A stretch of DNA of 64,000 nucleotides from a virus. Lineage: Duplodnaviria > Heunggongvirae > Uroviricota > Caudoviricetes. This document shows, piece by piece, positions 6,704 to 57,714 of the stretch. Each line of letters starts with the position of its first letter. Position 1 is the first letter of the stretch. The stretch spans positions 1 to 64,000 of IMG/VR virus record IMGVR_UViG_3300032007_000048; one strand, given 5' to 3'. A model generated the notes under the pieces. The model made no database searches. It worked only from the letters and a program-made list of their open reading frames with translations, and had not been told where the DNA came from. Made by a program: the position numbers and the translations under genes.

Positions 6704-6737
6704 AAGCCGTAGATGTTTATTCTACGGCTTTATTTTT
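6704..6737. terminator. bidirectional intrinsic terminator between convergent blocks
   Basis: Stem agccgtaga / tctacggct with 7-nt loop, flanked by A-run and T-run. Confidence 0.6.
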
Positions 6738-6796
6738 AAAAGGGACTCTACAAATGCTATATATTATTTTGGGGAAAACAGTATACTCGTTTACAC

Positions 6797-7507: not shown

Positions 7508-7508
7508 A

Positions 7509-8445: not shown

Positions 8446-8446
8446 A

Positions 8447-9331
8447 TTACATCAGTTTTCTAATTTTATTTAAAGTTTCTTGGAATTTCTCATCATTTTC
8501 GTTTAATCTTCCAGAAACACTTGTTTTTGTGTCTTTCACCTGATAAGACATAAGTTCTTTCATTCTGTTGAACTCATTGTTTGTCTGTGTCTTGTTTTCA
8601 TGCAGAAGGACATTCGCTTTGTTGTTTTTCCACTCAACAAGATATATGTTACCGTCCATATCCTTCATTTTGAACTTAAGGCCATTAACTTTAAAGTCAT
8701 CAGGAATTTTGTCAATCATATGGTTTTCGGTGATAAATTTTGTCCTTTTATAGAAGACGGTTTTGATGTTCTCATTTATTGGCTTGTTAGCCTCCACCTC
8801 AATTGATTTAAGGTGGTTCATCATCTGTCTCATGTTAAAACCCTCTTTACTTTCGTACATGTTGTCCCTATCAAATGTCTCATCAGGAAGTTCTCTTGCC
8901 TGTAAACCTGATTTTCTGAAGTCTTTCATGTTTTTCTGCATTTCCTCACCTGATTTTTTAAGACCCTGATAAATGTTCTCACCGTCAGAGTAGTCATTGG
9001 ATTTTTCAAGACCGTTGTTCATTTCCTGTTCAGATGTATAACCTTTAACTTGCGCGTGTACTCTTTTTTTGTACTCAGGCGTGACATTTTCAGGTTCATA
9101 GTCCAAAGTGGTCTTGTTCTCATCCTGTTTTTCGTATTTCGGTTTCTTTTCCAAAACCTCATCAGCCAAACCACCGTCAAAGTCCTTGGCTCTCTTTTCT
9201 GACTCTTTGTAAGCCTTACCGTTGATTTCCTTATCTTTTTCTTCAACACCTTGTCCAAGTTTTGCCTTGAACTCGTTTGAACTTTCCCTGATAAGTTTAT
9301 TCATCTCACTTTTAGTATAAGTCATTTCCAT
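8447..9331 (-). CDS. hypothetical highly charged (K/E-rich) protein
   Basis: 294-aa ORF; low-complexity charged composition. Confidence 0.45.
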   Translation of the reverse strand: MEMTYTKSEMNKLIRESSNEFKAKLGQGVEEKDKEINGKAYKESEKRAKDFDGGLADEVLEKKPKYEKQDENKTTLDYEPENVTPEYKKRVHAQVKGYTSEQEMNNGLEKSNDYSDGENIYQGLKKSGEEMQKNMKDFRKSGLQARELPDETFDRDNMYESKEGFNMRQMMNHLKSIEVEANKPINENIKTVFYKRTKFITENHMIDKIPDDFKVNGLKFKMKDMDGNIYLVEWKNNKANVLLHENKTQTNNEFNRMKELMSYQVKDTKTSVSGRLNENDEKFQETLNKIRKLM

Positions 9332-9346: not shown

Positions 9347-9823
9347 TTAGTTATTTTCGCTATTAAGGTAATTTACCGCTTCCTGGTGATTATATGTTAA
9401 CACCAATGTGTCATCATCATATTTACCATCTATTGTTCCGAACACACTGTATGTGCCGTATTTGTCTTTGGCTGCGGCTTCTATTGCCAAGTCTTCAGCA
9501 TCGCTTGATGTTTGTCTTTGTTTGTCCAAATCCGTTACTGTATCAACACTGAAAGACCCAATCAAAGAGCCATCAGAGTCATTGATGACGACATATGAAT
9601 CAAATTCTTCGTTCTCAATCCTTCTCTGTCTCTCATCAACAGGGTTTTCTTCTTCCTCCTCATCGTCCCATTCGTCACCGTCATAGTCATAATCACCGTT
9701 GGGTAATCTTCTGTAAATGGGTTTTCTTAGTTCCTTAAGAATCTTCTTAACAGATTCGTTAACCATATATTGTATGTCTTCAACTGTCAGTTTCATTTTT
9801 ACCAAGGTATATTTCTTCTCCAA
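9347..9823 (-). CDS. hypothetical acidic protein with shared N-terminal motif
   Basis: 158 aa. LTVEDIQYMVNESVKKILKE near the N-terminus; poly-E/D tract. Confidence 0.45.
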   Translation of the reverse strand: MEKKYTLVKMKLTVEDIQYMVNESVKKILKELRKPIYRRLPNGDYDYDGDEWDDEEEEENPVDERQRRIENEEFDSYVVINDSDGSLIGSFSVDTVTDLDKQRQTSSDAEDLAIEAAAKDKYGTYSVFGTIDGKYDDDTLVLTYNHQEAVNYLNSENN

Positions 9824-11235: not shown

Positions 11236-11487
11236 TTAAATATTATTGTTCCAAGTTTGACTTCTTTGCCACAATGTCTTGAATAGGTTCTCAACTGATT
11301 TGGCGACAATTTTCTTAATCTCTTTTTCAATGTCCTTATCTTTTTTGACAGCATCAAGAGTGATGTCTTTGACTTCTTTTTTAAATTCCCTGTTTTTAAG
11401 GATGTCATCAACACCAGATTCATTTATGATACCCTCAGATACCAATCTTTTTGCCATTGATTCAGATATTATTATTTTTTTTGCCAT
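11236..11487 (-). CDS. hypothetical small protein
   Basis: 83-aa ORF; first gene of the minus-strand block. Confidence 0.4.
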   Translation of the reverse strand: MAKKIIISESMAKRLVSEGIINESGVDDILKNREFKKEVKDITLDAVKKDKDIEKEIKKIVAKSVENLFKTLWQRSQTWNNNI

Positions 11488-11638: not shown

Positions 11639-13231
11639 ATGAAAAATTTGTTTAAAATATCGGAAGGTAGTAATCCTAACTATCTGGCAACCATTTGCCG
11701 TATTGGTGAAACGTTCCCTATTGAGGGTGCTGACAGACTTCTCAGAACCACTGTTAACGGTGCTGACATTGTTATTGGTAACACAATGAAAACCAATGAT
11801 ATTGTGGTTTATGTACCTGTGGAAAGCGCGCTTTCTGAAAAGTTTTTGTCGGCCAACAATCTTTATGAGATTGGTGAATGGGAGAAAAATGCTAACGCTC
11901 CTGAAATTGGTATTATGATGGCGAAATACAATGACCTCAAAAACACCGGAAAAACCGATGAGGCTGACGAACTTTACAAGGAAATTAAGTCACAAGTCGG
12001 TTACTTTAACAAAAGGAACAGGGTAAGGATTATCACTCTTAGGGGTTGTGTTTCCAACGGTTTTATCGCAGGTGTTAACTCACTTGTCAACTATAATCCT
12101 GACCTTGCTGATGTTAATTGGGAGGAAATGGTTGGAACCTCATTTAATTATATTGGTGATGATGAATTTTGTAAAAAGTATATTCCACCAATTAAGACTT
12201 CTGAACAGAATACAGGACAGAAAGGTTTTAATAAGAGGATGAAGAAAATTAAGAGGTTTGATAAACTGGTCGAAGGTCAATTCACCTATCATTATGACAC
12301 ACAGCGTATTGATTCAACCAATATTAAGGGATTGCTTTCACCGGAGGATATTGTTACCATAACAGTCAAGGTCCATGGAACATCAGTAATTTTGTCCAAT
12401 ATTCTTGTTAATAAAAAACTTACTTTTTTTGAAAGAGTTAAGAAGTTTTTCGGTATGAATGTAAAAACAACTGAATATGGTAACATTTATTCAAGTAGGT
12501 CTGTAATTAAGAACAGATATATAACAGGTAAGGACAGTAATGATTTCTACGGTGTTGATATTTGGGGTTGTGTGAACAGGGATTTTTCACCTTATCTTTC
12601 AGAGGGTATGACTGTGTATGGTGAGATTGCAGGTTATCTTGAAGGGTCGGACAAGATGATACAGAAACGTCATGACTATGGTTGTGAGGTTGGACATTGG
12701 AAGTTTATGCCTTATCGTATAACTGAGACGGATGCCAATGGTAATGTTAAGGAATGGAATGTGCTTGATGTTGACAAGTGGACAAGAAACCTTGTTGCCG
12801 AACACCCTGAACTTAGTGACAAGGTTCTTAATCTTGAAGTGCTTTACCACGGTAAACTTTGTGATTTGTATCCTGACATTGTGGTTGACGACATGTGGTA
12901 CGACAATTTCCTTACAAGACTGCACAACGATGACAATTTCTATATGGAGCAAAAAGAGCCTATGTGTCATTTGTATGAAAAGGAAGCACTTGCGGCTAAG
13001 GCTGTTCTTGACAATGCCAAAAAGAAAGGCGAAAGTAAGAAAGTGATTTCAAAATTGACCAAGGACTATGAGAAATATGAGTCAATGAGGGCACCAAGAG
13101 AGGGTGTTGTCATTAGGATTGATGATGACCCTAAGTCTGAGGCTTTTAAAGTTAAAACTAATCTCCACTACGGATTAGTTGAATGTGCACAACATGATGC
13201 AGGTGAAGTTGATATTGAGGAGACAGCGTAA
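11639..13231 (+). CDS. ATP-dependent RNA ligase, Rnl5/DraRnl-like
   Basis: 530 aa. Motif I KVHGTS (the KxHG variant seen in the Deinococcus DraRnl family), motif III-like VYGEIAG, motif V-like REGVVIRID. There is an extra N-terminal domain. Confidence 0.55.
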   Translation: MKNLFKISEGSNPNYLATICRIGETFPIEGADRLLRTTVNGADIVIGNTMKTNDIVVYVPVESALSEKFLSANNLYEIGEWEKNANAPEIGIMMAKYNDLKNTGKTDEADELYKEIKSQVGYFNKRNRVRIITLRGCVSNGFIAGVNSLVNYNPDLADVNWEEMVGTSFNYIGDDEFCKKYIPPIKTSEQNTGQKGFNKRMKKIKRFDKLVEGQFTYHYDTQRIDSTNIKGLLSPEDIVTITVKVHGTSVILSNILVNKKLTFFERVKKFFGMNVKTTEYGNIYSSRSVIKNRYITGKDSNDFYGVDIWGCVNRDFSPYLSEGMTVYGEIAGYLEGSDKMIQKRHDYGCEVGHWKFMPYRITETDANGNVKEWNVLDVDKWTRNLVAEHPELSDKVLNLEVLYHGKLCDLYPDIVVDDMWYDNFLTRLHNDDNFYMEQKEPMCHLYEKEALAAKAVLDNAKKKGESKKVISKLTKDYEKYESMRAPREGVVIRIDDDPKSEAFKVKTNLHYGLVECAQHDAGEVDIEETA

Positions 13232-15078: not shown

Positions 15079-15942
15079 ATGGACATTAAGACTATTAAAG
15101 GGAATCTTATTGAGAGGAGTGACACACTTGCAAGGTATTTTAGGGAAATCAATAAATATCCCGTACTTTCAGCGGAGGAGGAGTATGACCTTATACTTAA
15201 AATAAAAAATGGGGACAATGAGGCGAAAGAAAAACTCATAAACAGTAATCAGAGATTTGTTGTGGCTATTGCGAAAAGGTATGCCAACAACGATAACATC
15301 ATGGATTTAATTGACGAGGGTAACCTCGGTCTTATGTCAGTCATAAATGATATTGACAAATATGATACTACTAAGGGAACAAGGTTTTTGTCATATGCTG
15401 TTTGGTACATCAGGAGAAGTATTCAGTATTACATAATGAACACCAATATGTTTGTCAGAAGAACAAACAACATTAAATTGGGTAACAAAATGACCAAGGT
15501 TAAAAACAAGTATTTTGGTCTTAATGGCAGGTATCCAACCGAAGATGAGATAATTGATATGTTGAAAAAAGATTTTGACATCACAATACTCAAACAGAGT
15601 GATGTGTTTGACATCACAACTGAGTCAGTTAATGAGTACATTGACGAAGACCAGAACACTTTGGAAGACACTAAAGCATTTACTGACAAAACCGCAAGTT
15701 ATAATGAGTATGAGGAGACAATTGACAAGGAATATACCAAAACACTTGTCAGCAAATTGTTGTCCATGCTTAATGAAAGAGATAGAACAATAGTCAAAAT
15801 GTACTTTGGCATTGGTTATGACAAAGAGTATAATAACTATGAAATCGGTGAGGAACTTGGACTGACATCGGAAAGGATTAGGCAAGTTATTAATGATGTG
15901 ACTAAAAAGTTGCATAGGGCACTTAGTTTTGTTAAAGTCTAA
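15079..15942 (+). CDS. RNA polymerase sigma-70 family factor
   Basis: 287 aa. Region 2 DLIDEGNLGLMSVINDIDKYDTTKGTRFLSYAVWYIRRSIQYYI and a region-4 HTH (YEIGEELGLTSERIRQVINDVTKKLHR). Confidence 0.8.
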   Translation: MDIKTIKGNLIERSDTLARYFREINKYPVLSAEEEYDLILKIKNGDNEAKEKLINSNQRFVVAIAKRYANNDNIMDLIDEGNLGLMSVINDIDKYDTTKGTRFLSYAVWYIRRSIQYYIMNTNMFVRRTNNIKLGNKMTKVKNKYFGLNGRYPTEDEIIDMLKKDFDITILKQSDVFDITTESVNEYIDEDQNTLEDTKAFTDKTASYNEYEETIDKEYTKTLVSKLLSMLNERDRTIVKMYFGIGYDKEYNNYEIGEELGLTSERIRQVINDVTKKLHRALSFVKV

Positions 15943-15981: not shown

Positions 15982-16722
15982 ATGCAACGCATTATACTAA
16001 CAGAAAAACAATTAAACAAAATAATTACAGATTCTTTAGCGAAAATTTTAAAAGAAAATAGCGGTTGTTTTGTGAAATTAACTTTTGATAAAATTTCCAC
16101 CATTACTTACCAAAACAATAAATCCACACAAATAAACGAAGAAAGTAACTGGATATTAAAATCTAAAAATTGGGAAAAGAACAATTATGAGAGATTTCTT
16201 TCAATTGTTAATATGACACCTAAAAAATATAAAGGTTATCTCACATATCATGGTTTAGATGAGATTAAAGGTAATGATTGGATAACATACACATTGAAAG
16301 GACATAATGTCGCTTTTGCTTTACATTACATAGAACCAGGAAAAATTGATTTGTGTAATTTTGTTAACAACTCCGATTTAAAAGGAATTGGTGATTTGGT
16401 TCTGCAATTTGCCAAAAACCAAGGTGCGACACAAATGGACAACTATAGGGGCTTTCCATCTGAAAAAGACCCTGAAGGACATGGCAAACTTGGAAATCTA
16501 TATAGGAGAAACGGTTTCAATAAACAAACATGGCATGATGAGTTTAATCCTGAATTTCAACCTGCTGACGAAGAATGGCAGTTAGACAAATCAAATTTCC
16601 AAAATGGAAAAGGTCCTGATGTGGAAGGTTTGGAATTGTCAAGACATAGAGCGAAATATAATAACCCGCAAAGAGCATATAGAAAAAAATTTGATGATAG
16701 AATTGGTAGTAAATTTAAATAA
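15982..16722 (+). CDS. hypothetical protein with shared N-terminal motif
   Basis: 246 aa. N-terminus ILTEKQLNKIITDSLAKILKEN. Confidence 0.45.
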   Translation: MQRIILTEKQLNKIITDSLAKILKENSGCFVKLTFDKISTITYQNNKSTQINEESNWILKSKNWEKNNYERFLSIVNMTPKKYKGYLTYHGLDEIKGNDWITYTLKGHNVAFALHYIEPGKIDLCNFVNNSDLKGIGDLVLQFAKNQGATQMDNYRGFPSEKDPEGHGKLGNLYRRNGFNKQTWHDEFNPEFQPADEEWQLDKSNFQNGKGPDVEGLELSRHRAKYNNPQRAYRKKFDDRIGSKFK

Positions 16723-20960: not shown

Positions 20961-21124
20961 GTTGTAATTCCATTTAATTTATGGTTGACTAACACCTAGT
21001 CTAACAAACCTAAAAAGCCTGACAGGTTGTAATTCCATTTAATTTATGGTTGACTAACATCTGCCATGAGGCATCTTGACAAGAACAGAAGTTGTAATTT
21101 TATTTACTTTTTTACATTAATAAA
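20961..21124 (+). CRISPR. CRISPR-like mini-array: three 34-nt repeats (third degenerate), two 31-nt spacers
   Basis: R1 20961..20994 and R2 21026..21059 are identical (GTTGTAATTCCATTTAATTTATGGTTGACTAACA). The spacers 20995..21025 (cctagtctaacaaacctaaaaagcctgacag) and 21060..21090 (tctgccatgaggcatcttgacaagaacagaa) are unique and equal in length. R3 from 21091 keeps GTTGTAATT and then diverges. The array lies 51 nt upstream of the TnpB-like gene on the same strand. Confidence 0.6.
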
Positions 21125-21162
21125 CTATTTATAAATAGAAAAAATAAAAATCTATTCATCTT

Positions 21163-22323
21163 ATGACAAGAGCATATAAATATAAACTTAAACCAACTGT
21201 GAAACAACAAAAATTGTTTTCACAAGCCTTTGGTAATGCTCGCTTTATCTATAATTGGGGACTTAATCGTAAAAAAGAAACCTGGGAAAAGGAACATAAA
21301 AATGTTACATATATACAACTGGCCAAAGAACTTACTTTACTTAAAAAAGACGGTGAACATGATTGGCTGAAACAATGTGCTAACGTTTGTCTACAACAAT
21401 CACTTAGAAACCTTGATAATGCCTATACCAGATTCTTTAAAGCAAAAAAAGGCTTTCCTAAATTTAAATCAAAGAAAAATAGTGTTGATTCTGTTAAATA
21501 CATTGCTGCTGTTCACTTTGATTTTGAAACCATGAGAGTATCAGTGCCATGTATAGGTAAAGTTAAATTTCTTAAAAATTGCGAATTTGATGTAAACACA
21601 GTAAAATTGGGTACTTTAACTGTTACAAAAGATAAATGTGGTGATTATTGGTGTACCATAGTAGTTGATGACAATAAACCAAACGTATCGAAAACCAAGA
21701 TATGTGAGGAAAAAACTGTTGGCATTGACTTAGGTGTTAAAGATTATGCAATTCTATCTGACGGTACAAAGTACGGAAATCCTAAGTATCTTGAAGCAAA
21801 ACAACAACAGTTAGCAAAAGCACAACAATGGCTTTCCAGAACACAAAAAAATAGTAAACGTCATGAAAAAGCAAAATTATATGTAGCAAAGTTACATAGA
21901 AAAATTGCTAACAGAAGAAATGATTTTCTTCATAAGTTAACAACCATGTTGATTAATGGTGAATATGACACATTTTGTATGGAGAATCTTAACATTACTG
22001 GTATGACACAGAATCATAATCTTGCAAAGAGTATAAATAGTGTTGCATGGAATGAATTTGTTAGACAATTGACATACAAGTGTGAATGGTGTGGAAAGAA
22101 CATTGTATTCATTGGTAGATATGAACCAAGTAGTAAGACATGTAACAAATGTGGATACATTGACAAGGAACTGAAGTTATCTGATAGAGAATGGATATGT
22201 CCAATATGTGGTGAACATCATGATAGAGATGTAAATGCAGCAATTAATATTAAGAACATGGGGTTACATCCACAGGCATTAATTGGCATTGAACAAAAAA
22301 TAGAAGAAATTAATAATAAATAA
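21163..22323 (+). CDS. TnpB-like RuvC/zinc-finger nuclease (IS605 OrfB family; candidate compact type V effector)
   Basis: 386 aa. RuvC-I VGIDLGVKDYA, RuvC-II FCMENLNITGM, zinc finger CNKCG...CPICG, RuvC-III HDRDVNAAINI. The OrfB-type N-terminus is present. No TnpA gene is nearby. Confidence 0.8.
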   Translation: MTRAYKYKLKPTVKQQKLFSQAFGNARFIYNWGLNRKKETWEKEHKNVTYIQLAKELTLLKKDGEHDWLKQCANVCLQQSLRNLDNAYTRFFKAKKGFPKFKSKKNSVDSVKYIAAVHFDFETMRVSVPCIGKVKFLKNCEFDVNTVKLGTLTVTKDKCGDYWCTIVVDDNKPNVSKTKICEEKTVGIDLGVKDYAILSDGTKYGNPKYLEAKQQQLAKAQQWLSRTQKNSKRHEKAKLYVAKLHRKIANRRNDFLHKLTTMLINGEYDTFCMENLNITGMTQNHNLAKSINSVAWNEFVRQLTYKCEWCGKNIVFIGRYEPSSKTCNKCGYIDKELKLSDREWICPICGEHHDRDVNAAINIKNMGLHPQALIGIEQKIEEINNK

Positions 22324-25805: not shown

Positions 25806-27023
25806 TTATTTTTTGTATGCTATTTTTCTTGCTTCCAGCAAAAGATTATTAACGAAGTCAACATTAATTTCACTTGGAAGTTTTGTTGTTTTCACGGCTT
25901 CATCAAACTTGTTTTTTAACAATGTCGCCTCAGCCATCACCTCATCGTAAGAGAACTCATGATTTCTTATGGCAAGAAGGTGTTTGACATCATCACCTGT
26001 TCTTCTGACATTAAATCCCTTACCCTCAGCAAGTTCAACACCCATTTCCATTAGTCTAATCATGTGAAGGAAGTTTTTGCTGTCATAGTTATAACCTCTA
26101 TTGTTTTCATATCTCACAGGATTTCTATGTTTTTTCCACTCTGTCCAATCCTTGTAATCTTTACAGTGTTTGGTATATGCGTCCTTATTATATACCATAT
26201 AACAAATGGGCAGTTCACCCTTAGGTATTGATGACAATCTAACCTCATTTGATTTGGTAATCTCATCCGGATAAACAATACCTGAGTAATGGAAAAACTC
26301 TTTATTGTTGATTCTGTCTATGATGGACTGTTTGTCCATACCTTCACCAATTATTCTACAAAAAGGATACTTAACACCTTCAATCTGAAAATCAGCGCAG
26401 TACCAATCAATACCCTCAAATTTAAAATAAGCAGCAAAATCATAGTACACACCATAGGTGTCTTTCATGTTGGGTATGTTAACAAGGCCACAATATCTTT
26501 GGTCAAGATGGTATTCATCAAGAAATTCCTTTATTGGTTGGCTACCTTGATTTTTAAAGGTATAACAAAAATCAAGAATATCTTTTCTTTGGAAATCCTC
26601 AGGTATGTTACATTTCTTGTTATATCCACTTGCTTTTTGCAGTTGTTGAAACGCGTATCCCAAAATAGGATTGAGGCATTGTTTAGTTAAAAAGGCTTCC
26701 TTATGATTAAGAATATGTTGCACGGCAGGATGTATATCACCTATAATGCAATCATCAGGAATAAACAATGACTCCATGGATGTGGGGTTTGATTTAAGAA
26801 GTAACTCAACCCACCTTCCCAACTCATAAAAAACGACATCAGATTTTTCATCATTGACTTGTTCAACATATTTGTCTCTTAAACCGTACAAATCGGTCTC
26901 AGGGCAAATAAAAACGCCACCAATGTCCTTGTCACTGGTTTCAGTAAATGTACCATATGCATGTGAACCTCTAATATATTCGTATGCGATTAGGTTATTT
27001 TCTCTAAGATAGTCAATTGTCAT
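25806..27023 (-). CDS. nucleotidyltransferase (pol-beta superfamily) domain protein
   Basis: 405 aa. N-terminal GSHAYGTFTETSDKDIGGVF matches the hG[GS]x9-13Dh[DE]h NTase motif. Confidence 0.55.
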   Translation of the reverse strand: MTIDYLRENNLIAYEYIRGSHAYGTFTETSDKDIGGVFICPETDLYGLRDKYVEQVNDEKSDVVFYELGRWVELLLKSNPTSMESLFIPDDCIIGDIHPAVQHILNHKEAFLTKQCLNPILGYAFQQLQKASGYNKKCNIPEDFQRKDILDFCYTFKNQGSQPIKEFLDEYHLDQRYCGLVNIPNMKDTYGVYYDFAAYFKFEGIDWYCADFQIEGVKYPFCRIIGEGMDKQSIIDRINNKEFFHYSGIVYPDEITKSNEVRLSSIPKGELPICYMVYNKDAYTKHCKDYKDWTEWKKHRNPVRYENNRGYNYDSKNFLHMIRLMEMGVELAEGKGFNVRRTGDDVKHLLAIRNHEFSYDEVMAEATLLKNKFDEAVKTTKLPSEINVDFVNNLLLEARKIAYKK

Positions 27024-27129: not shown

Positions 27130-28383
27130 TTAATTTCTAAAAATGTATAAATTATTACCACACTCAAAAAAATCTGGCCAGTCAAAGTTCTCAATCATTT
27201 TTTCAAATGTCTCTTTACTGAAACCGTCATTTTTTCTTCTTTCAATGTTTTTTTCGATACCCTTAGCCTCAACATATAAGTAATCGGTTATAACGTTATA
27301 CTCTTTTGAGAGTGTGTTAACTATTTCTTCCCTGTATTTCTTTTTAAGGTTTATGTTATTGATAACAATATCATGGCCACATGATGCCGCATGTAACATT
27401 CTTTGGTTGAAAATTTCGGTTACCTTATCTTCCTGTTCCTTTGTGCCGACAATTTTTTGACCATCAGCGCAAAATCCCAATTCTGCTCTAATATCATCCC
27501 TTGACAGGATTTCAGTCTTCCCTTCTTGGAACCTATATAGAAACTCATCACCGTCATACAACGTTATTGTTTTATTATCATCAAACAAATCATCAATAAG
27601 GGTGTTTTTTCCTGAACCAGGCAAACCAATCATCATGAACAAATTAACACTTGGTTTTTTGATGTTAAGTTCATAATCATTAAGATTAAAAAGATACTTG
27701 TTACAAAAATATGGCTTAGTCTCTGAAAGTTTTAAAAAATCAACCAACCTAGTGAAATGGTTTAAAATTCTCATTTCATCGCACTTGATTTCAGAACTAT
27801 GTTCAGACCCCATACAGTCAGCATATTTAAGTCTATATAGTTGCAACAGATTGACTTGACAAGACAACCTTATAATCTCCTCTATATAGTTCTTATGTTT
27901 GATTATATTAAGTGGAAGCATGTGGTATTTAACTAACGCGCATACTTTTTCCCTAAAAGACAAATCCTCATCCCATAACAATCTTCTTGTTATTTTCTCA
28001 CCCTCAAATTCGTGACCATAACTGTGCCAATTACCATCCTTACCTATTTTTGTGGTTACGCCTTTACCGATGTCATGAAAAAGGGCGGCAGTCAAAAGAA
28101 CATCAGCGTCCTCAATCTCAGCGGCTAAACATCTTCCCCTCCAATTTAGTATCATGTCAATGACAACATCACAAACCTTCATAGTATGTGTCATGACATC
28201 GCCTTCACTATGCCATTTAGGATTTTGCTCACAGTTTTTCAAAACGGCAAATTCAGGAACCTGCTCTACCGCTTCCCAATTTATAGAACAATTGGTAAAA
28301 TCAATTAAATCTGATGCTTTCATTTTTTTTTCTTTAAATAACCTGACAAAAAATACCGTAGTCATAATACAAAGTATCCTCAA
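27130..28383 (-). CDS. HD-domain phosphohydrolase / P-loop kinase fusion (polynucleotide kinase-phosphatase-like)
   Basis: 417 aa. An H...HD motif (KWHSEGDVMTH ... ALFHDIGK) is in the N-terminal half, and Walker A GLPGSGKNT is in the C-terminal half. Confidence 0.55.
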   Translation of the reverse strand: MRILCIMTTVFFVRLFKEKKMKASDLIDFTNCSINWEAVEQVPEFAVLKNCEQNPKWHSEGDVMTHTMKVCDVVIDMILNWRGRCLAAEIEDADVLLTAALFHDIGKGVTTKIGKDGNWHSYGHEFEGEKITRRLLWDEDLSFREKVCALVKYHMLPLNIIKHKNYIEEIIRLSCQVNLLQLYRLKYADCMGSEHSSEIKCDEMRILNHFTRLVDFLKLSETKPYFCNKYLFNLNDYELNIKKPSVNLFMMIGLPGSGKNTLIDDLFDDNKTITLYDGDEFLYRFQEGKTEILSRDDIRAELGFCADGQKIVGTKEQEDKVTEIFNQRMLHAASCGHDIVINNINLKKKYREEIVNTLSKEYNVITDYLYVEAKGIEKNIERRKNDGFSKETFEKMIENFDWPDFFECGNNLYIFRN

Positions 28384-36019: not shown

Positions 36020-36619
36020 ATGAGCAAGGTAATTTACAACAAAAATACAAGAACCTCAAGTGAGATTAGTGGTATGTTTGAACCTGGATATCAGTTAGGT
36101 GAAATAGTACTTGATAACAATTCAAACGCGCCTGGTTTGTGGATGACAAAACTTCTTGGCGGTACTCCCACACCGTTCAAACTTAATGATATTAAAAACA
36201 TGGTAGTGGACAGCGCGTTAGACAATACAGCCACCGGTGATGTGGCGGCAGGTGACACTGTTTTCAATGCTTTGTCAAAAGTAGCCAATGGTGCGGAAAA
36301 TAGAAAATTCACTAAGGTCAACACCCTTTCCAACTTAACTTTCAACACATTTTTAACAATAGCCACAATAAACACAGACACAACTTTGACCATATCAACA
36401 GACAGTTTGGTTTCAGTGCCTAACGGCTGTGTCAGGGAAGGACACTTGCTTATAAACAATACCGGTGCGTCAAACATTGCCATAACAATTGGGTCTGACA
36501 GTAGGGTCAGGACAACCAACGGCACGACATTTTCTGTTGAGGCAGGTGGTATAGGTGAGTTAAACGCCCTTGTCATTAATGACAACGGAACTTACACCAT
36601 CTACATTATCACATCATAA
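36020..36619 (+). CDS. hypothetical virion protein
   Basis: 199 aa, T/N/S-rich beta-type composition, first gene of the structural block. Confidence 0.45.
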   Translation: MSKVIYNKNTRTSSEISGMFEPGYQLGEIVLDNNSNAPGLWMTKLLGGTPTPFKLNDIKNMVVDSALDNTATGDVAAGDTVFNALSKVANGAENRKFTKVNTLSNLTFNTFLTIATINTDTTLTISTDSLVSVPNGCVREGHLLINNTGASNIAITIGSDSRVRTTNGTTFSVEAGGIGELNALVINDNGTYTIYIITS

Positions 36620-48938: not shown

Positions 48939-51900
48939 ATGGATTATCAGAAAGTAAATAATACATGGAAACCTGTTTCCGGTTATTATAGAAAAAATAA
49001 TGGCGTTTGGGAAACAATAGATGCTACCACATTTGAAAATTTTGTATCATCAAATGTGGTAATGTTTGGTGGTTCTGTTGACGGAAACCACACCTTGACT
49101 ATAGGTGGTATCACAAGCATAAGTGGTGTGTCATGTTCTTTTACCGCAATATATGATAATATGACAAACGTGACAACTGCTGCGACTTGGAGTATTGTTA
49201 GTGGTTCTTCTTATGCCACAATAAGCGCACATACAGGTGAAGTTGAAATTTTGTCTACAGCAAATGAAAGCAATGTTATTATACAGGCATCATATCTTAA
49301 TGTGGCAACCACACAAGAATTAACATTAACTTATTATACAGGTTCAACAAGTGAGACTGAAACTGAAATTGATATAGATGAAAGTGGTAACACAACCACA
49401 ACCACAACAACCACCACAACAAACGAGGATGGTTCATCATCTGTTATCACAACAACAGTTGTCACAGATGAAAGTGGTAACACAATCGGTTCAAGTGAAA
49501 GTAATAAAGATATTAATTCTGATGGTTCATTTAATGCCACAACAACCAACTATGATAGTGAAGGTAATGCCACCGATGGTATTAATCAAAGTGGTGATAC
49601 AAGCGGTAATGTGAGTAGTCAGGAAGTTGAGTACGATGAAAGTGGTAATACAACTGTGACAGGTTATCAAATTGACACTTCAGGTAATCCAGATGGTACT
49701 AAAGAATTTAACGGTGATGGTGTCAACACTGAATACTATGCTTTTGATGTGACACAAGGATTTATCGCTGACATACATTTTGTTATCAATTGTAATAACA
49801 GTCCAACTGGACAAAACGAAAATCACCATAATATACTGACAGCGAAAAGAAGTTCACCTTCACCTTGGTACGGATTCCAATTAAGACAAACACTCACAGC
49901 AAAAACAATTACGTTGGGTACACAGTTCTCTACTGGAAGTAATATTAATACTACAATACAACCAATGCCTACAACAGGTAATAACCTTGAATATAACCTT
50001 AGAATTATATACAACCCTACCGTTTCAACAAATTCTTTTATTTGTAGAAACATGGCAACAGGACAAAATGTATATACAAGTAATGGAAAATTCCCAGACA
50101 TTGATGACCTTAGATATATTAAGGTCACAATTGGTTATGCTATGGATGAGAATGGAGACCCGTTCAGATATTCGGATATTGATGTGAAAAATTTCTCAAT
50201 CAGAAGACTTGAGCAACTTTATACTCCTGTTATATCTTGTAGTCATAATGTTGTTACCATTTCTTGTGAAACAACAGGTGCTGATATATATTACAAACTA
50301 AATCAAACCGGAAGTTTTATGCAATATACATCAGCATTCACAATAAGTGCTGACACAATTGTTGATGCTTATGCGGTATATTGTGATGTTAATAGTGATA
50401 CTGTCACTGAGGTTTGTAGATATGAAGAAGAAGGCGTGAAAGCACCTGTTATTACTTGTGACGGAACAGGTGTTACCATTACTTGTGAAACCGAAGGTGC
50501 AACCATTTATTATAAATGTAACCATGTTGGTGGATACAGTGCATATACACAAACATTCCCAATAACTGCCGATACTTTTGTGGAATCATACTCTATGTTA
50601 GATGAGGAAACAAGTCAGGTTGTCAGTGAAATGTGTATTTATAGTGAAACACATGATTATTCTCTTGACTATCTTACCTTTAGGGTTAAATCTGGCGGAA
50701 CAATTTCTTGGAATTCTGTTGGCACACAACAAGTGAAGGCAATTCAGTATAGTCTAAACAATGGTTCATGGACATATTTAGTGCCATCATCTGTTGGTTC
50801 ATCTGTTTCAATAACTGTGTCTGAGGATGATGTGGTAAGAATCAAGGGTTCTAATGCATCTTATGGTACAACCAATGAGGATTACATGGGATTCAGTGGT
50901 GGAACTGCGGTGTTTGATGTCGAAGGTAACATAATGAGTCTTGTTTACGGTGATAACTTTGTTGGAAATACCGCACTTACAGGAACATTTAACTTCTGTT
51001 CATTGTTTAAGCAAGCAAATGTTATATCAGCAGAAAACCTCGTCTTACCAGCAACCACTTTGACACCATACTGTTATCGTGCATTATTTGCCAATAGTGA
51101 AACAGTAGCAATTGCACCTGCGTTACCGGCAACAACACTTGCGGAAGGTTGCTATCGTTATATGTTCCAATATAATGCAATAAGAACCGCACCTGAACTT
51201 CTTGCACCTGTGTTGGTTTATGATTGTTATGAAGGAATGTTTAACAATTGTCATAACTTGAATTATATTAAATGTTTAGCCACTGATATTTCTGCATCAG
51301 CAGCAACTGCTAATTGGGTTACAGGTGTGGCATCATCAGGTACATTTATTAAAAATGCCAGTACAGAATGGGTTCTTGGTATTAGTGGTATTCCTACAAG
51401 ATGGGATGTTATTGATGAGGGACTTCAAGCACCTGTCATATCTTGTGATGGTCTCCATATAACTTTGGTATGTTCAACACAAGGTGCAAGCATTTATTAC
51501 AAATTGAATAGTCAAGGTGATTACGCATTATATTCCACACCTATATCAATTTCTGCTGATACTTTCATTGAAGCATACTCTATGTTAGATGAGGAAACAA
51601 GTGAGGTTGTCAGTGAAACTTGTATATATGATGATGGAATTGATGAACCTGTTATATATTGTGATGGTGAGTATGTCACCATATCTTGTGCAACAGGAGG
51701 TGCGTCAATCTATTATAAGTTTGATTTAGACCCTATTTATAATCCATATGATTCAGCAATTGCGATTTCAGCAGACACAGTATGTTATGCATATTCTGAA
51801 ATTGACGGTAGACAAAGTGAAGTTGTCTCAGCCACTTGTGTTTATGATGATTCACTTAAAGCACCTATCATTGAATGCAATGGAACTGTAGTTACAATTA

Positions 51901-54900
51901 CATGTCACACAGTAGGTGCTGATATAAACTATAGATTAAACGAAGAAGGAACATATTCCTTATATAATGCACCAATAGTTATTTCAGCAGACACAATAGT
52001 TGAGGCATATTCTGAGAAAGATAGTGTAGTAAGTACTATCGTAAGTGCATTTTGTGAATATAGTGATGTTCATGACTATTCCCTTGATTATCTTACGTTC
52101 AGAGTTCTTTCAGATGGTACAATCGGTTGGAATTTAGTTGGAACCGGTTTTTCTAAAACAATTCAATATAGTAAAAATGATGGTGCATGGACAACTTTAA
52201 CACCAAGTACTTCAACTACAATATCGGTTGTAACAGGAGATGTTATAAGGTTCAAAGGAACTAACATATCATACGCAAATGATAAATCAAATTATTCAGC
52301 GTTTGGTTCATCCGAAGCCAATGTAGGTGGTGGAACCGGCGCAACATTTAATATAGAAGGTAACATAATGAGTCTTGTTTACGGTGATAACTTTGTTGGA
52401 AACACCGCACTTACAGGAACATATAACTTCTGTTCATTGTTTAAATTAACAAATGTTGTATCAGCAGAAAACCTCGTCTTACCTGCAACCACATTAAAAG
52501 AGTATTGCTATCGTGCAATGTTTAGTAGATGTTATGAGTTAGTTAAAGTTGTCGAATTACCGGCAACAACGTTAGCAAAAGGTTGTTATTGGTATATGTT
52601 TGACAAATCAGCATCATTTGAGGTAGCACCTGAATTACCTGCCACAACACTTGTTGCGGAATGTTATGGACATATGTTCGAGGAATGTACAAGTCTTAAT
52701 TATATTAAATGTATGGCAACTACAGGATTTACCGCAAATAATTGTAAAGCATCATGGACAAGTGGTGTTTCCGCTACAGGTACATTTGTTAAAGACAGTT
52801 CTGCATCCACATCCACTTGGTCTAAAGGTGCAAGCGGCATTCCTACAGGTTGGTTAGTATATGATGATGTGGCAATTGATGCTCCTGTCATTTCCTGTGA
52901 CGGATATAACAACGTAACCATTACTTGTGATACAACAGGTGCTACAATTTATTACAAACTTAATGGCGAAGATAATTATGCCACATATAACACACCAATA
53001 GTCATATCTGCAACCACTGTTGTAGAGGCATATTCTGAAAAAGATGGCCAAGAAAGTAGAGTTGTTTCACAAACTTGCGAATACATAAGTGATGTTCCTT
53101 TGGAAGCATGTAACAGGGATTTAACCAAATGGACTTACAGCAATCAGGAAATAACAACACCATATTCTGTTAATAGAATAGATGGCCATAGTGCAAGTTA
53201 TGCAAAGGGAACATTCAATTTTGAGACAAGTTTCGCTTTGCGTGAGGTACAGCCAACATATTTATGGTTCCAACATGCAGACCAATCTGCCACAATATAT
53301 GTGGATGATGTTTTAGTGGAAAAACACTGGGGTGGTTATGCTGCGTTTTCAGTTGACATATCAGAGTTTGTTCATAGCGGAACAAACAGAGTAAAGGTTG
53401 CTCTTAAAAATAATGAGGGAAACAACCTTGCTCCTGCGAGTGCTGACTTTAACTTCAACGCCACACTTGGTAATGTTAAACTTTATACAAGTCCTGTAGT
53501 ACCTGATATGATTTATGGATATGACGGATTCCATGTCACTTCGGATGTGGCGTTATCTTCCGCAACCATTGAAGTTAAAACAAGTGTTCCTACAGGTGCA
53601 ACCGTAACTTGTGAGATAAGTGATGGTACATATCATTATGGTGCGTCAGGTAGTAGTACAGGTGAAGAAATGATATTTAGTGCAACTGTTACCAATCCTC
53701 ATCTATGGAATGGTACAACTGACCCTCACTTATATAACATAACACTTAATGTTTATCATAATGGTGATTTGTATCACACATATCAAAGACCTTATGGTTT
53801 GAGATTCTATAGTTATGTAATCAATGAAACTGTCAATGGAGACACATATACAGGCTTCTTACTTAATGGGCAACCATATTTGTTAAGGGGTTGCTGTATG
53901 CATGATGATATTGATGGAAAGGCTAACGCATTGGATGATGATGATTATACACAGACATTCAGCATTATTCAAGAACTTGGTGCTAATTTCCTACGCCTTG
54001 CACACTATCCACATCCAAAGGAAACCTATGATTGGTGTGATAGATTAGGTATTATTGTACAGACAGAAGGACCTTGTGTTAATAAAATGCAGTCAACAAT
54101 GCCAGCTGATTATTATACACACCTTATTGGACAATATAATGACATGGTAAATCAGCATTATAATCACCCATGTATTTGCTTCTGGGGATTAAGTAACGAA
54201 ACCACAACTGATGATAAGGCTTTTGCAAAAGAAAAGATAAATGGTTATATTGCACAAATTAAAGCCTTAGATTCAGAGCGTATGGTAGGTTATGTTATGG
54301 CTCAAGGTCCTGGTTCTGACCCAAGTGCATATTATAATAATCCAGATGCTGATTGGTTCGGTTGTAACATTTACGAAGGTTGGTATAGTAGCCCCAATTC
54401 AAATAATCCATCAACTCAGATAAACACTCGTGTTAAGAACGTTATAACCAATAAGAGTAAGGCTCTTGCTTATTCAGAGTATGGTTGTGGCGGTACGCAA
54501 CATTGTCACTCTGACGATTATATGACAACAACAACAAGGGGTAATCGTGAAAGGCATGATATTGAGTATATGATGTGGTTACATGAAGGTCATATAGCGG
54601 CAATTAAGAACTATCCTCAACTATTATTCACTTCACAATGGCAATTATTTGATATCGCAGTGTCTAACAGAAATGAAGGTTATACTGTATGTCTTGACGG
54701 TGTTATTACATCTACAAATGATAATTTAAGGAGATTAAATGACAAGGGTCTTGTTGAAAGAGACCATCGTACAAAGAAGGATGTTTTCTATCTTTACAAG
54801 GCATGGTGGAACACAACAGATATATTTGTACATATTTGTGGTAAAGACTATACCAAGATGACAGATAGGGTTATTAAATGTTATACTAACTATAATAATA

Positions 54901-55046
54901 GTTTATCACTTTATGTAAATGATACTTTTGTTGAGACTGTTTCCGTAACTGACAATATTGCAACATTTACTGCAAGAACTTTCAGTGCAGGTGATGTGGT
55001 TAGAGTTGAAGGTGGTTCAATTAATGACACATTCACTTTTAAATAA
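48939..55046 (+). CDS. giant tail/tailspike protein: Ig-like (CHB_HEX_C/Fn3-like) repeats, two LRR modules, C-terminal GH2-type glycoside hydrolase
   Basis: 2035 aa. Thr-run and DESGNT low-complexity region. About 7 repeats of APVI(S/T)CDG..VTI(T/S)C.T.GA.IYYK. Two LPATTL..CY..MF modules, each ending NYIKC(L/M)AT. C-terminus: GH2 sugar-binding signature IYVDDVLVEKHWGGYAAFSVDISEFV, TIM-barrel signature FLLNGQPYLLRGCCMHDDIDG...GANFLRLAHYPHPKETYDWCDRLGIIVQTE, and acid/base WGLSNE. Confidence 0.7.
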   Translation: MDYQKVNNTWKPVSGYYRKNNGVWETIDATTFENFVSSNVVMFGGSVDGNHTLTIGGITSISGVSCSFTAIYDNMTNVTTAATWSIVSGSSYATISAHTGEVEILSTANESNVIIQASYLNVATTQELTLTYYTGSTSETETEIDIDESGNTTTTTTTTTTNEDGSSSVITTTVVTDESGNTIGSSESNKDINSDGSFNATTTNYDSEGNATDGINQSGDTSGNVSSQEVEYDESGNTTVTGYQIDTSGNPDGTKEFNGDGVNTEYYAFDVTQGFIADIHFVINCNNSPTGQNENHHNILTAKRSSPSPWYGFQLRQTLTAKTITLGTQFSTGSNINTTIQPMPTTGNNLEYNLRIIYNPTVSTNSFICRNMATGQNVYTSNGKFPDIDDLRYIKVTIGYAMDENGDPFRYSDIDVKNFSIRRLEQLYTPVISCSHNVVTISCETTGADIYYKLNQTGSFMQYTSAFTISADTIVDAYAVYCDVNSDTVTEVCRYEEEGVKAPVITCDGTGVTITCETEGATIYYKCNHVGGYSAYTQTFPITADTFVESYSMLDEETSQVVSEMCIYSETHDYSLDYLTFRVKSGGTISWNSVGTQQVKAIQYSLNNGSWTYLVPSSVGSSVSITVSEDDVVRIKGSNASYGTTNEDYMGFSGGTAVFDVEGNIMSLVYGDNFVGNTALTGTFNFCSLFKQANVISAENLVLPATTLTPYCYRALFANSETVAIAPALPATTLAEGCYRYMFQYNAIRTAPELLAPVLVYDCYEGMFNNCHNLNYIKCLATDISASAATANWVTGVASSGTFIKNASTEWVLGISGIPTRWDVIDEGLQAPVISCDGLHITLVCSTQGASIYYKLNSQGDYALYSTPISISADTFIEAYSMLDEETSEVVSETCIYDDGIDEPVIYCDGEYVTISCATGGASIYYKFDLDPIYNPYDSAIAISADTVCYAYSEIDGRQSEVVSATCVYDDSLKAPIIECNGTVVTITCHTVGADINYRLNEEGTYSLYNAPIVISADTIVEAYSEKDSVVSTIVSAFCEYSDVHDYSLDYLTFRVLSDGTIGWNLVGTGFSKTIQYSKNDGAWTTLTPSTSTTISVVTGDVIRFKGTNISYANDKSNYSAFGSSEANVGGGTGATFNIEGNIMSLVYGDNFVGNTALTGTYNFCSLFKLTNVVSAENLVLPATTLKEYCYRAMFSRCYELVKVVELPATTLAKGCYWYMFDKSASFEVAPELPATTLVAECYGHMFEECTSLNYIKCMATTGFTANNCKASWTSGVSATGTFVKDSSASTSTWSKGASGIPTGWLVYDDVAIDAPVISCDGYNNVTITCDTTGATIYYKLNGEDNYATYNTPIVISATTVVEAYSEKDGQESRVVSQTCEYISDVPLEACNRDLTKWTYSNQEITTPYSVNRIDGHSASYAKGTFNFETSFALREVQPTYLWFQHADQSATIYVDDVLVEKHWGGYAAFSVDISEFVHSGTNRVKVALKNNEGNNLAPASADFNFNATLGNVKLYTSPVVPDMIYGYDGFHVTSDVALSSATIEVKTSVPTGATVTCEISDGTYHYGASGSSTGEEMIFSATVTNPHLWNGTTDPHLYNITLNVYHNGDLYHTYQRPYGLRFYSYVINETVNGDTYTGFLLNGQPYLLRGCCMHDDIDGKANALDDDDYTQTFSIIQELGANFLRLAHYPHPKETYDWCDRLGIIVQTEGPCVNKMQSTMPADYYTHLIGQYNDMVNQHYNHPCICFWGLSNETTTDDKAFAKEKINGYIAQIKALDSERMVGYVMAQGPGSDPSAYYNNPDADWFGCNIYEGWYSSPNSNNPSTQINTRVKNVITNKSKALAYSEYGCGGTQHCHSDDYMTTTTRGNRERHDIEYMMWLHEGHIAAIKNYPQLLFTSQWQLFDIAVSNRNEGYTVCLDGVITSTNDNLRRLNDKGLVERDHRTKKDVFYLYKAWWNTTDIFVHICGKDYTKMTDRVIKCYTNYNNSLSLYVNDTFVETVSVTDNIATFTARTFSAGDVVRVEGGSINDTFTFK

Positions 55047-55400: not shown

Positions 55401-55853
55401 ATGGAGTCAGTTAAAATTAGTGAGAAACAATTGTATTCGATAATATCTGAATCAATAGTAAAGATATTGAGAGAAGAAAGAAGTGAAAACATAGATAATG
55501 ATATTATTGAACTAATATCATATTTACACAATATGCAAAAACCTTTAAGGGAAATTCATTGGAATACCAATGAGTATTCCACACATATGGTAACTGATGA
55601 GACCATTGATGATGTCATTGAATGGGAAGACACATTAGCTGAAGCCTTTGTCAGTAACACTAATATTGAATTAACTATTAGTGATGTGAAACCTTCATCA
55701 GATTACAAAACATTAATGGAGGAATTAATCAATAAGGCAAGCACAATTAAAGACAATATTTCAGATAACAAGGAATATGACAGTATATGTGCTGTTTTGG
55801 ATGAGATTATTGAGAAATCAAATCAATTGTTATATAAGAGTCAATTAAAATAG
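55401..55853 (+). CDS. hypothetical protein with shared N-terminal motif
   Basis: 150 aa. N-terminus ISEKQLYSIISESIVKILREE. Confidence 0.45.
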   Translation: MESVKISEKQLYSIISESIVKILREERSENIDNDIIELISYLHNMQKPLREIHWNTNEYSTHMVTDETIDDVIEWEDTLAEAFVSNTNIELTISDVKPSSDYKTLMEELINKASTIKDNISDNKEYDSICAVLDEIIEKSNQLLYKSQLK

Positions 55854-55860
55854 TAATATC

Positions 55861-56577
55861 ATGCCAGCGAAAAGCAAATCACAACAAAGGTTGTTCGGAA
55901 TGGTACATGCTTATCAAAAAGGTGAGTTGAAAAATCCATCGTCAGAGATAAAGTCAATTGCGAAATCAATATCCAAAAAAGACGCGGAAGATTTTGCGGA
56001 AACAAAACATAAAGGTTTACCAAACAAGGTTAAAACCAAGAAAAATGAGGAAAGGAATATGGGTAAAAATAAAGTTAATGAAAGCTATGGAATTGGTTAT
56101 AAAGGACAATTCATCAAAAAAGGTGGATGGGGACCGACATTTACATCATTTCCTGAGGATGCCATAAAGTTCAGAACACCTGAACAAGCACAGCAATATA
56201 TGGAAGAAAATCTTGGTGATGACTTTGGCGCATCAGTTGTCTCTTTACCTTTACAAGAAAACAAGAATGTGGTTAGAATCAATGAAAACCAGTTACATAG
56301 TTTAATTGCTGAATCAATAAAAAGAGTTCTTAAAGAACAATGGGATTTTGATGACGAAGACGATACATTCACACCTCAGGGGTACAAAACTGATTCCAAT
56401 TGGGGAGGTACTGAAATACAGATAAACAAAAACGGTGATGCCGCAAGACTTAGAGACAATCACGGTACACCAGGAACACCTACTGATTGGATGGAGATTC
56501 AGTTTGATGAAAACGGTGTCGCATATGTTGAGACTGAGAATGGGACAGTTCGATTAGATGAGTTTATGAGAGTATAA
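55861..56577 (+). CDS. hypothetical protein with internal copy of the shared motif
   Basis: 238 aa. INENQLHSLIAESIKRVLKEQ occurs at residue ~145. The N-terminus is basic. Confidence 0.45.
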   Translation: MPAKSKSQQRLFGMVHAYQKGELKNPSSEIKSIAKSISKKDAEDFAETKHKGLPNKVKTKKNEERNMGKNKVNESYGIGYKGQFIKKGGWGPTFTSFPEDAIKFRTPEQAQQYMEENLGDDFGASVVSLPLQENKNVVRINENQLHSLIAESIKRVLKEQWDFDDEDDTFTPQGYKTDSNWGGTEIQINKNGDAARLRDNHGTPGTPTDWMEIQFDENGVAYVETENGTVRLDEFMRV

Positions 56578-56625: not shown

Positions 56626-57714
56626 TTAATCAACATCAAACTCTTCGATAGTAAGAACAGCGGCTCTTGATGTCTGAACACTGTTACCTGCATCAAAACT
56701 TGTTGAAAGTCTAAAAGTACTCGCAGGGACATTAAGTTCATAAATAAGCACATCCTTAACTGCCTTAGCCCTGTTCTCAGCAAGTGTGGTGTTTCTGCTC
56801 TCAGTACCTGTTCCACTGTCTGCTGAGCCAACGATATGGACAACCATATTGTCCTTAATCTGCTTTGAGAACTCAACAATCTTAGCATGTTCGGTAGGTG
56901 AAAGCACATCACTGTTCAAGTCAAAAGTAATGAAAGTCTTACCAACAAATGTGGGGATAGGGGTCTCTACCTGCTTCTCAACAACCCTCTCAGTCACAAC
57001 TTCCTTAACAACAGGCTCCTTATTCAAAGCCTCATTAAGCTTAGCCTGAAGAGCGTCATAATCGGCCTGACTGTACCTATAGTCGTTGGTCACAAAATTA
57101 TGGGAATTGACCCTATGGTTCTTAAACTTGTAAGTAAAACCAACCTCACAAACAAAGATAGCCCTTGTTCTGTTAAGATTATAGAAATTGTCGTAAGTCA
57201 ACCAAGTAACGGTAGGCTTGAAATTAATCTGTGCAGCCCTTGCCTTTCCAAGATTAACATTAAGTTCACCACCAAGGTTATAGTTCAAGGTATTGTGATG
57301 TGTGACAGGCTTGCCATAACCATGTCCCCAACCAAAACCAGGAACAGCAACAACCTCTACCCTTCTTGGTGCGCCCTTATAACCGCCAAAGAAATTGGAC
57401 ATATTAACCTTTGCGTTGGCGATAACATTACTCTCATCAAAGAAAGTGTATGAACCTGTGGTGTTAAAGAAGCCTCTACCAACAACGCTGAAACCGTAAA
57501 CAGGGGTAACCCAAGTACCAATCTCAACTGATGCGGTTGGTCTGAAAGCGTCAATAAAATCACCGAAACTGTCAGCACTCAAAGGTGACGCTCCACCAAA
57601 ATTAACGCTAAAATAAGGCATTCCAAATGAGCCTACATACTCATAATTCTGATTCTGTGCAAATCCCATAATCCCTATGGTAAATGCGATAATTAAACTA
57701 ATAATTTTCTTCAT
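56626..57714 (-). CDS. OmpA-family outer-membrane protein
   Basis: 362 aa. Signal peptide MKKIISLIIAFTIGIMGFA, a beta-rich middle, and a C-terminal OmpA-like peptidoglycan-binding domain (VVHIVGSADSGTGTESRNTTLAENRAKAVKDVL). Confidence 0.6.
   Translation of the reverse strand: MKKIISLIIAFTIGIMGFAQNQNYEYVGSFGMPYFSVNFGGASPLSADSFGDFIDAFRPTASVEIGTWVTPVYGFSVVGRGFFNTTGSYTFFDESNVIANAKVNMSNFFGGYKGAPRRVEVVAVPGFGWGHGYGKPVTHHNTLNYNLGGELNVNLGKARAAQINFKPTVTWLTYDNFYNLNRTRAIFVCEVGFTYKFKNHRVNSHNFVTNDYRYSQADYDALQAKLNEALNKEPVVKEVVTERVVEKQVETPIPTFVGKTFITFDLNSDVLSPTEHAKIVEFSKQIKDNMVVHIVGSADSGTGTESRNTTLAENRAKAVKDVLIYELNVPASTFRLSTSFDAGNSVQTSRAAVLTIEEFDVD

Follow-up and report, generated by a model that had tools for sequence, protein, structure and literature searches.

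A short peptide motif on diverse proteins of large T4-like phages, and its possible role as a prohead-core targeting and processing leader

The motif and its copies in the window

The 64,000-nucleotide stretch of viral DNA analysed here (IMG/VR record IMGVR_UViG_3300032007_000048, positions 1 to 64,000; hereafter the window) belongs to a large phage and has a GC content of 33%. Five of its genes encode proteins which share a peptide motif of 20-25 residues, and this motif is our subject. An earlier note, made from the letters of the DNA, had pointed out strong copies in five proteins, here labelled A to E. A regular expression and a hidden Markov model (HMM) each find exactly five strong copies, all of them where that note had placed them.

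Gene A (55401-55853, plus strand) encodes a 150-aa protein with the motif copy ISEKQLYSIISESIVKILRE at residues 6-25 (nt 55416-55475; 18.0 bits). In the 238-aa product of gene B (55861-56577, plus strand), the copy is internal: INENQLHSLIAESIKRVLKE at residues 140-159 (nt 56278-56337; 33.9 bits). Protein C (246 aa, gene 15982-16722, plus strand) has LTEKQLNKIITDSLAKILKE at residues 6-25 (nt 15997-16056; 31.0 bits). The remaining two genes are on the minus strand: D (6797-7507, 236 aa) with FTENDIQYMVMESVKKILKE at residues 4-23 (nt 7439-7498; 36.9 bits), and E (9347-9796), whose acidic 149-aa product has LTVEDIQYMVNESVKKILKE at residues 3-22 (nt 9731-9790; 29.4 bits), followed by the acidic tract DEWDDEEEEENPVDE. 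All five copies terminate in L-[KR]-E. The earlier note had the motif of E right and its gene too long, taking an upstream TTG as the start (9347..9823), whereas the public gene call starts at the ATG at 9796, so the motif is N-terminal in E as in the others. An N-terminal location, which the note had taken to be general, therefore holds for A, C, D and E, but the copy in B is internal, and those of relatives can be N-terminal, internal or C-terminal.

To avoid circularity, the HMM used for scoring was built from 19 outside sequences only, and the background was a set of 30 codon-shuffled windows. The five copies score 18-37 bits, whereas the best match in a shuffled window averages 6.5 bits and never exceeds 13.0 bits, so the motif is far more frequent than composition predicts. 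A sixth, weaker version that had been proposed in 11236-11487 scores 5.5 bits and falls inside the shuffled noise. There is also a possible degenerate second copy in D (VSESKLNSLIKECLTEVINE, 7133-7192, minus strand, residues 106-125), which is borderline at 8.8 bits, a value within the shuffled range, and is at the same time a sub-threshold match to positions 2-23 of the Pfam family PF25734.

One peptide on different proteins

The carriers had been described as otherwise unrelated, and our comparisons agree. Pairwise BLASTP similarity is limited to the motif, and the Pfam domains differ: DUF5856 in A (37.2 bits, cut-off 34.6), DUF3008 in B (residues 3-57, 32.3 bits, cut-off 24) and a DUF6926 segment in D (residues 153-182, 29 bits, cut-off 27), with no Pfam or PHROG family matched by C or E. 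Whole-length paralogy was rejected on these grounds. Neither of the outcomes which the note had listed as refuting its idea, a frequency expected from composition and true paralogy, was thus observed. A DNA repeat or RNA element was also considered and rejected, because codon usage differs between copies. For example, 16 of the 20 motif residues are identical in D and E, but the codon is the same at only 6 of these 16, and DNA identity among the window copies is 47-70%. Shared residues encoded by differing codons, at this level of DNA identity, indicate selection on the peptide.

Protein A is modelled by AlphaFold2 (AF2; mean confidence score, pLDDT, 83.8) as a four-helix bundle with Dps/MrgA as its top Foldseek matches. 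In this model, the motif prolongs helix 1 at its N-terminal end; the extension protrudes past the bundle and is predicted with lower confidence than the core. Full-length homologues of A number more than 120, on contigs of up to 369 kb; the motif is present in 24 of 24 aligned homologues and is more variable there than the Dps-like core.

Protein B consists of DUF3008 (3-57), an inserted domain, the motif and a C-terminal beta domain. Its AF2 model is of low confidence (pLDDT 56), so we used only the secondary structure, in which the motif region would form a lone helix (142-159) between stretches with pLDDT <50. The homologues of B are mosaics with the motif at module junctions: approximately 70 of 120 carry it, mostly straight after DUF3008 and ahead of variable cargo. 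The C-terminal domain of B recurs beside the tail-tube gene of one related contig. Other phages have DUF5856 and DUF3008 proteins that lack the motif.

DUF3008 (window 55863-56033; homologues P0305-P0424) is itself a second portable N-terminal module. Alone, it is a small protein in T4-like cyanophages, and elsewhere it heads large unrelated proteins, one of which has a HEVGHH metallopeptidase signature (P0405).

Anatomy of the motif

The motif consensus is MKKxIRLTESDLHRIVKESVKKILKE. In a logo of 287 copies, with positions counted back from the last Glu, the most frequent residues and their frequencies are L(-19) 0.67, E(-17) 0.94, S(-16) 0.65, L(-14) 0.88, I or V(-10) 1.00, E(-8) 0.87, S(-7) 0.95, L(-2) 0.93 and E(0) 1.00. 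Position -18 is T, N or S (together 0.87) and is followed by E-S-D, a pattern that looks like a helix N-cap. E(0) is followed by G, S, N or A (together 0.54) and then by a D/E/G-rich stretch. We propose that the unit of about 25 residues consists of a short basic strand-like stretch (KKxIRL) and a capped amphipathic helix, TESDLHRIVKESVKKILKE. The amphipathic character that had been suspected is borne out by hydrophobic moments of 0.41-0.55, above those of shuffles.

The conserved polar residues make up three tandem hydrophobic-x-Glu sites with spacings of 9 and 8 residues, namely L-T-E|S, [IV]-K-E|S and L-[KR]-E|G/S/N/A. The glutamates were compared in two independent homologue sets. The last is invariant in both (E25 in set A5, for A; E159 in set A6, for B, with 23 mosaic homologues) and the first is nearly invariant in both (E8 in A; E142 in B), while the middle one is nearly invariant in the B set (E151) and drifts in the A set. 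In T4, the rule of the prohead protease gp21 is a cut after L/I-X-E, and that of its giant-phage homologues a cut after S/A-X-E; propeptides often have several such sites, which lets the fragments leave the head (PMC9026906 section 2.5; PMC5694885). All three candidate sites of the motif fit the gp21 rule.

Distribution in other phages

The earlier note had proposed building an HMM and scanning more widely. A 31-position profile searched against 1.84 billion representative proteins matches 6,419 at E<=1e-3, of which 222 reach E<=1e-10, and the 6,419 protein clusters are nearly all on large phage contigs. The viral contigs with the motif are 35-349 kb long and often have several motif genes per 20 kb. 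By comparison, 185,579 species-representative genomes yielded 2 motif loci, both in metagenome-assembled genomes, one of them a Prevotella from yak reticulum.

We retrieved 184 of the matching proteins, a list which favours multi-copy proteins because scores add up. Of the copies in them, 163 are N-terminal, 143 internal and 26 C-terminal. Two copies are present in 124 proteins and three in 12, the median distance between copies being 94 residues. Internal copies have Met at the "start" position in approximately 22% of cases, where approximately 9% would be expected, a sign that tandem genes have fused and split. A separate observation concerns a 670-aa protein (L004/L005:7964-9976) with the motif both at its N-terminus and at its extreme C-terminus (…KLTENYLHRVINESIKKILRELNQ*); the next gene begins one base later and is itself motif-first.

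No family in Pfam, PHROGs or the PDB covers the motif, and the cargo parts of motif proteins are almost wholly unannotated. The nearest match is PF25734 (RelB_like_antitoxin), positions 2-23 of which weakly resemble the motif helix. Its scores are below the cut-off of 27 (13.2 bits for D, 19.4 for P0061), and weak matches occur in 7 of 147 proteins, so judged by these scores the motif is not a PF25734 member. Literature searches with motif strings found nothing relevant, nor was there anything for DUF3008, and a comparative review of jumbo phages does not mention such a leader. A short-peptide tblastn search with the window copies and the consensus against 50,697 GenBank phage records gave no usable match, either because the lineage is absent from them or because the query is too short. 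The peptide itself, its build of three sites, its use at junctions within proteins and the scale of that use appear to be undescribed, while the concept of a label with a protease site is known from T4.

T4-type head modules of the lineage

The motif-bearing lineage is T4-like. One of its proteins (L022:412-2445) matches T4 gp23 in the PDB (E=5e-29), and locus L106 contains Portal_T4 (E=8.6e-89), Peptidase_S77 (E=2.1e-21) and Gp23 (E=6.9e-74). In locus L013, a motif gene occurs together with a 1,164-aa tail sheath, a B-family DNA polymerase and a weak precomputed Pfam match to T4 gp19 (tail tube); tblastn relatives of this sheath include many Escherichia and Synechococcus phages. The capsid proteins of the lineage have a conserved HLIYE|ATASD in an N-terminal propeptide-like region, approximately 11 residues ahead of the first block conserved with T4 gp23. 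Candidate scaffold proteins are enriched in [LI]xE (z=3.1, 2.3 and 1.9, compared with 5.0 for T4 gp22). The capsid-protein site and the scaffold enrichment are both consistent with a T4-like cleavage rule.

The position of motif genes was examined in 80 loci retrieved through their homologues of the S77 protease, a sample that is independent of the motif. They include 43 distinct head modules with the arrangement capsid(-), scaffold(-), protease(+) ... portal(-) and protease identities of 64-100%. In 40 of the 43, the stretch from protease to portal contains one or more motif genes. The 173 kb of protease-portal gap hold 68 motif copies and the 417 kb of flanks hold 2, an approximately 80-fold concentration, whereas nine distinct outgroup modules with a colinear layout (protease 50-56% identical) have no motif gene in the gap. 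This concentration is the strongest result of the analysis.

The prohead-core genes 67 and 68 of T4 occupy the same position between portal and protease. Their small products are gp21 substrates, as the motif proteins may be, and gp67 has a helical N-terminal part and a very acidic tail, which recalls a recurrent head-module protein of 110-128 aa that consists of the motif and then a very acidic, aromatic-rich tail. There is no detectable homology, however, and in the motif clade the gap contains 1-5 motif genes with diverse C-terminal parts. At L106, where the S77 protease gene is at 6142-6840 (minus strand) and a scaffold candidate at 7032-8582, the protease stop codon and one motif gene overlap.

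A candidate prohead-core leader

We favour, with a little more confidence than doubt, the reading that the motif serves as a leader for prohead-core targeting and processing in a clade of large T4-like phages that infect gut and rumen Bacteroidota. The helix would dock its carrier onto the scaffolding core during prohead assembly. The S77 (gp21-family) prohead protease would then cut after the three conserved glutamates (L-T-E|S, [IV]-K-E|S and L-[KR]-E|small), turning the leader into peptides of 8-9 residues and leaving the cargo free within the capsid. A multi-module protein such as B would be a polyprotein from which these cuts release separate domains. Freed cargo would remain with the DNA and probably be ejected into the host, and some motif proteins of the head module may be core components, like T4 gp67 and gp68. 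We infer core binding, cleavage, packaging and ejection, and also that the window's own genome has the same kind of head module.

The closest known system is the T4 capsid targeting sequence (CTS) of IPI, IPII, IPIII and Alt, which is removed by gp21. As with the motif, proteins that are otherwise unrelated and evolve fast have a short peptide as their sole common part, the peptide terminates in a protease site of the hydrophobic-x-Glu type, and the carrier genes are scattered over the genome. Motif-bearing contigs related to the window also have the corresponding gp21-family (S77) protease, T4-type portal and T4-type capsid protein. The motif differs in its length (approximately 25 residues instead of 10-20), in being much more conserved, in its three tandem candidate cut sites, and in occurring internally, C-terminally and in multiple copies, on thousands of protein clusters. 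It is not homologous to the T4 sequence; that it is analogous to it we hold with the same slight preponderance of confidence that we give to the leader reading, of which this is a part.

Propeptides of the ejection and inner-body proteins of phiKZ, 201phi2-1 and SPN3US offer a second comparison. There too, a gp21 homologue cuts many head proteins after Glu, with several sites per propeptide, and the diverged paralogs gp53 and gp54 of SPN3US keep conserved N-termini (PMC5694885). These propeptides are longer than 100 residues, however, lack a single shared motif, follow the S/A-X-E rule and belong to another phage lineage. Outside phages, the encapsulation peptides of bacterial microcompartments and the cargo-loading peptides of encapsulins are short amphipathic helices with a linker. 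Placed at one of the two ends of a protein or between its domains, they send diverse cargo into a protein shell. They belong to cellular compartments, are uncleaved and have unrelated sequences, so the likeness is one of analogy only.

The earlier note had suggested a capsid or virion targeting sequence or a processing signal. The S77 protease and T4-type head of the lineage, the sites that follow the gp21 rule and the concentration of motif genes in the gap speak for that suggestion, which is now the best supported of the explanations, though by indirect evidence; the lack of head genes in the window, the copies that are not N-terminal, the sixth copy that cannot be told from chance and the missing homology to the T4 CTS limit that support.

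A number of observations weigh against the leader reading, and several concern the window itself. No portal, protease, scaffold or capsid gene was found in its 64 kb, its five motif genes are surrounded by non-structural genes, and its genome could not be linked directly to a head module. The gap position holds for motif genes of relatives and not for those five. An extra 5 kb upstream of the window contains small genes only and does not reach the genome's own head module. When homologues of A were compared with protease-bearing contigs by contig name, there was no overlap among the loci returned, and the region examined in Flavobacterium phage immuto has tail genes only and no capsid gene. 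The window and the motif-bearing contigs of the lineage do share many genes, at 30-65% amino-acid identity. Other objections concern the peptide. Hydrophobic-x-Glu is short, and a Lys/Glu-rich amphipathic helix could give it partly by chance. In A, the motif helix is predicted to be continuous with helix 1 of the Dps-like fold, with no linker, and A homologues have often lost the middle Glu-Ser. The motif HMM does not match T4 gp67, gp68, gp21, gp22 or gp24, and the T4 targeting sequence MKTYQEFIAE, compared by inspection only, has no similarity to the motif. The motif is also far longer and more conserved than a T4 targeting sequence needs to be, which suggests a more specific partner or an added role. 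Its internal and C-terminal copies make the polyprotein-processing reading a requirement, and many cargos are very acidic and so not obviously suited to packaging together with DNA.

Among the alternatives, the most serious is that the motif is a general docking or oligomerisation helix, by which many small phage proteins pair mutually or with one hub in the infected cell (e.g., a chaperone, a host factor or a condensate) with neither capsid loading nor proteolysis. We think this unlikely. In its favour, the motif is an amphipathic helix that projects from the fold in A, the two or three copies in many proteins could pack together, and the five window genes lie outside any head module. It leaves unexplained both the 80-fold portal-protease concentration and the restriction of the motif to one T4-like clade with an S77 protease, and the most conserved positions are the glutamates and the small residue that follows, not the hydrophobic face alone. 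Another sorting or turnover signal, such as a degron that times early proteins or a tag for some other compartment, strikes us as quite improbable. Signals of this kind are typically linear peptides, strongly conserved and carried by diverse small proteins, and several carriers are in early-looking gene arrays, but the internal and C-terminal copies disfavour an N-degron, no candidate machinery was found and the head-module enrichment would again be unexplained.

We give slightly less credence still to a module-junction linker, i.e., a seam kept by recombination for shuffling, fusing and splitting cassettes, with little function of its own. The mosaic homologues of B with the motif at their junctions, the Met excess in internal copies with the fusion and fission it indicates, and the L004 protein that ends in the motif right before the next motif gene all suit it. 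Conservation is nevertheless at the level of the peptide, with free synonymous change, and the DNA identity among copies would not suffice for homologous recombination to be efficient. Certain polar residues are under strong purifying selection, which implies a function at the protein level, so shuffling is better seen as a consequence. Ordinary paralogy, or chance arising from the Lys/Glu/Ile-rich composition of an AT-rich phage, is very improbable. It could draw on the ordinary paralog families with conserved N-termini that the same phage has, but it is already refuted by the scores of shuffles (<=13 bits against 18-37), by the differing Pfam domains, by similarity that stops at the motif, and by the existence of DUF5856 and DUF3008 without the motif in other phages.

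The prohead-core leader reading can be taken further. In a bolder form, the motif would be a universal "load and cut" label that defines all capsid-packaged, host-injected proteins of a large clade of uncultivated huge T4-like gut and rumen phages. Thousands of diverse small effectors could then be recognised from sequence, many of them made as polyproteins that the prohead protease cuts at triple-Glu leaders within the capsid. We put this forward tentatively and are inclined to doubt it. The capsid cargo of huge phages is largely unknown because almost no gut or rumen ones have been cultured, so if the leader does mark capsid cargo, the proteins that hundreds of uncultivated phages inject could be listed by a simple profile search. 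Those proteins would be candidates for effectors of anti-defence and host takeover, almost none with a known fold, and T4's strategy of one label for many cargos would have been reinvented with a different, more elaborate peptide. The motif would also be a ready-made tag for packaging foreign proteins into Bacteroidota phages. Should the capsid reading prove mistaken, a peptide of 25 residues that is conserved on >6,000 protein clusters and that Pfam, PHROGs and the PDB all lack would still be an unannotated functional element which deserves a family entry.

A promoter-like element

The 9-mer ACTATTTAT(A/T) lies 30-40 nt upstream of the starts of A, C, the weak open reading frame 11236-11487, a transposase gene and the gene 36020-36619. 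It occurs at positions 11518, 15943, 21124, 35979, 55052 and 55366, among others, and related contigs have GATATTTAT at the same place. It is probably a phage promoter class which is not specific to motif genes. We considered a promoter exclusive to motif genes and rejected it, as the element also precedes the transposase gene and another gene and is not enriched overall.

Other genes of the window

Motif genes A and B are immediately preceded by the gene for a 2,035-aa protein (48939-55046, plus strand) with repeated internal segments and, at the C-terminal end, a glycoside hydrolase family 2 domain. This probable virion-borne glycosidase or tail fibre has a counterpart of 64-67% identity on contig IMGVR_UViG_3300028886_000064. 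At 56626-57714 on the minus strand there is a gene for a protein with an OmpA-family C-terminal domain (PF00691) and a signal-peptide-like N-terminus. A sigma factor gene (15079-15942) is directly upstream of motif gene C.

The window also encodes an endolysin, a helicase and an RNA-repair-type set: an RNA ligase (11639-13231), a CCA-type nucleotidyltransferase (25806-27023) and a polynucleotide kinase (27130-28383). The nucleotidyltransferase is 39-40% identical to the enzymes of Lak megaphages and of a 635-kb uncultured phage. Adjacent plus-strand genes at 3613-4875 and 4934-6319 match the Pfam families EcoRI_methylase and GmrSD_N. GmrSD is a type IV restriction enzyme family and the target of the T4 internal protein IPI, which makes a phage-encoded GmrSD-like protein noteworthy.

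The transposase gene mentioned above encodes a TnpB-like protein (21163-22323, plus strand; phrog_506, E=5.9e-117) with homologues in several related contigs. The palindromic sequence AACTATTTATAAATAGAAA, at 21119-21145, precedes it and contains the promoter-like ACTATTTAT element.

Three tandem genes at approximately 1376-2509 encode members of a family of approximately 120-157 aa with EDYVSFETAKLLKEKGF at the N-terminus and YEEACEAAIKYCLENLI at the C-terminus; further members lie upstream at L116:733-1206 and L116:5362-5763. In contrast to the motif carriers, these proteins are ordinary whole-length paralogs. A second family is found on the same contig just ahead of the window, where L116:1908-4977 (approximately 0.1-3.2 kb before the window start) contains six tandem paralogs that start with MTQEEKQLLIKDLCARLPYGV and end with FDFRGLIEKGLALEAPEGMY. 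A seventh, more diverged member lies at L116:1461-1835, and the family is part of an early-looking array of small genes.

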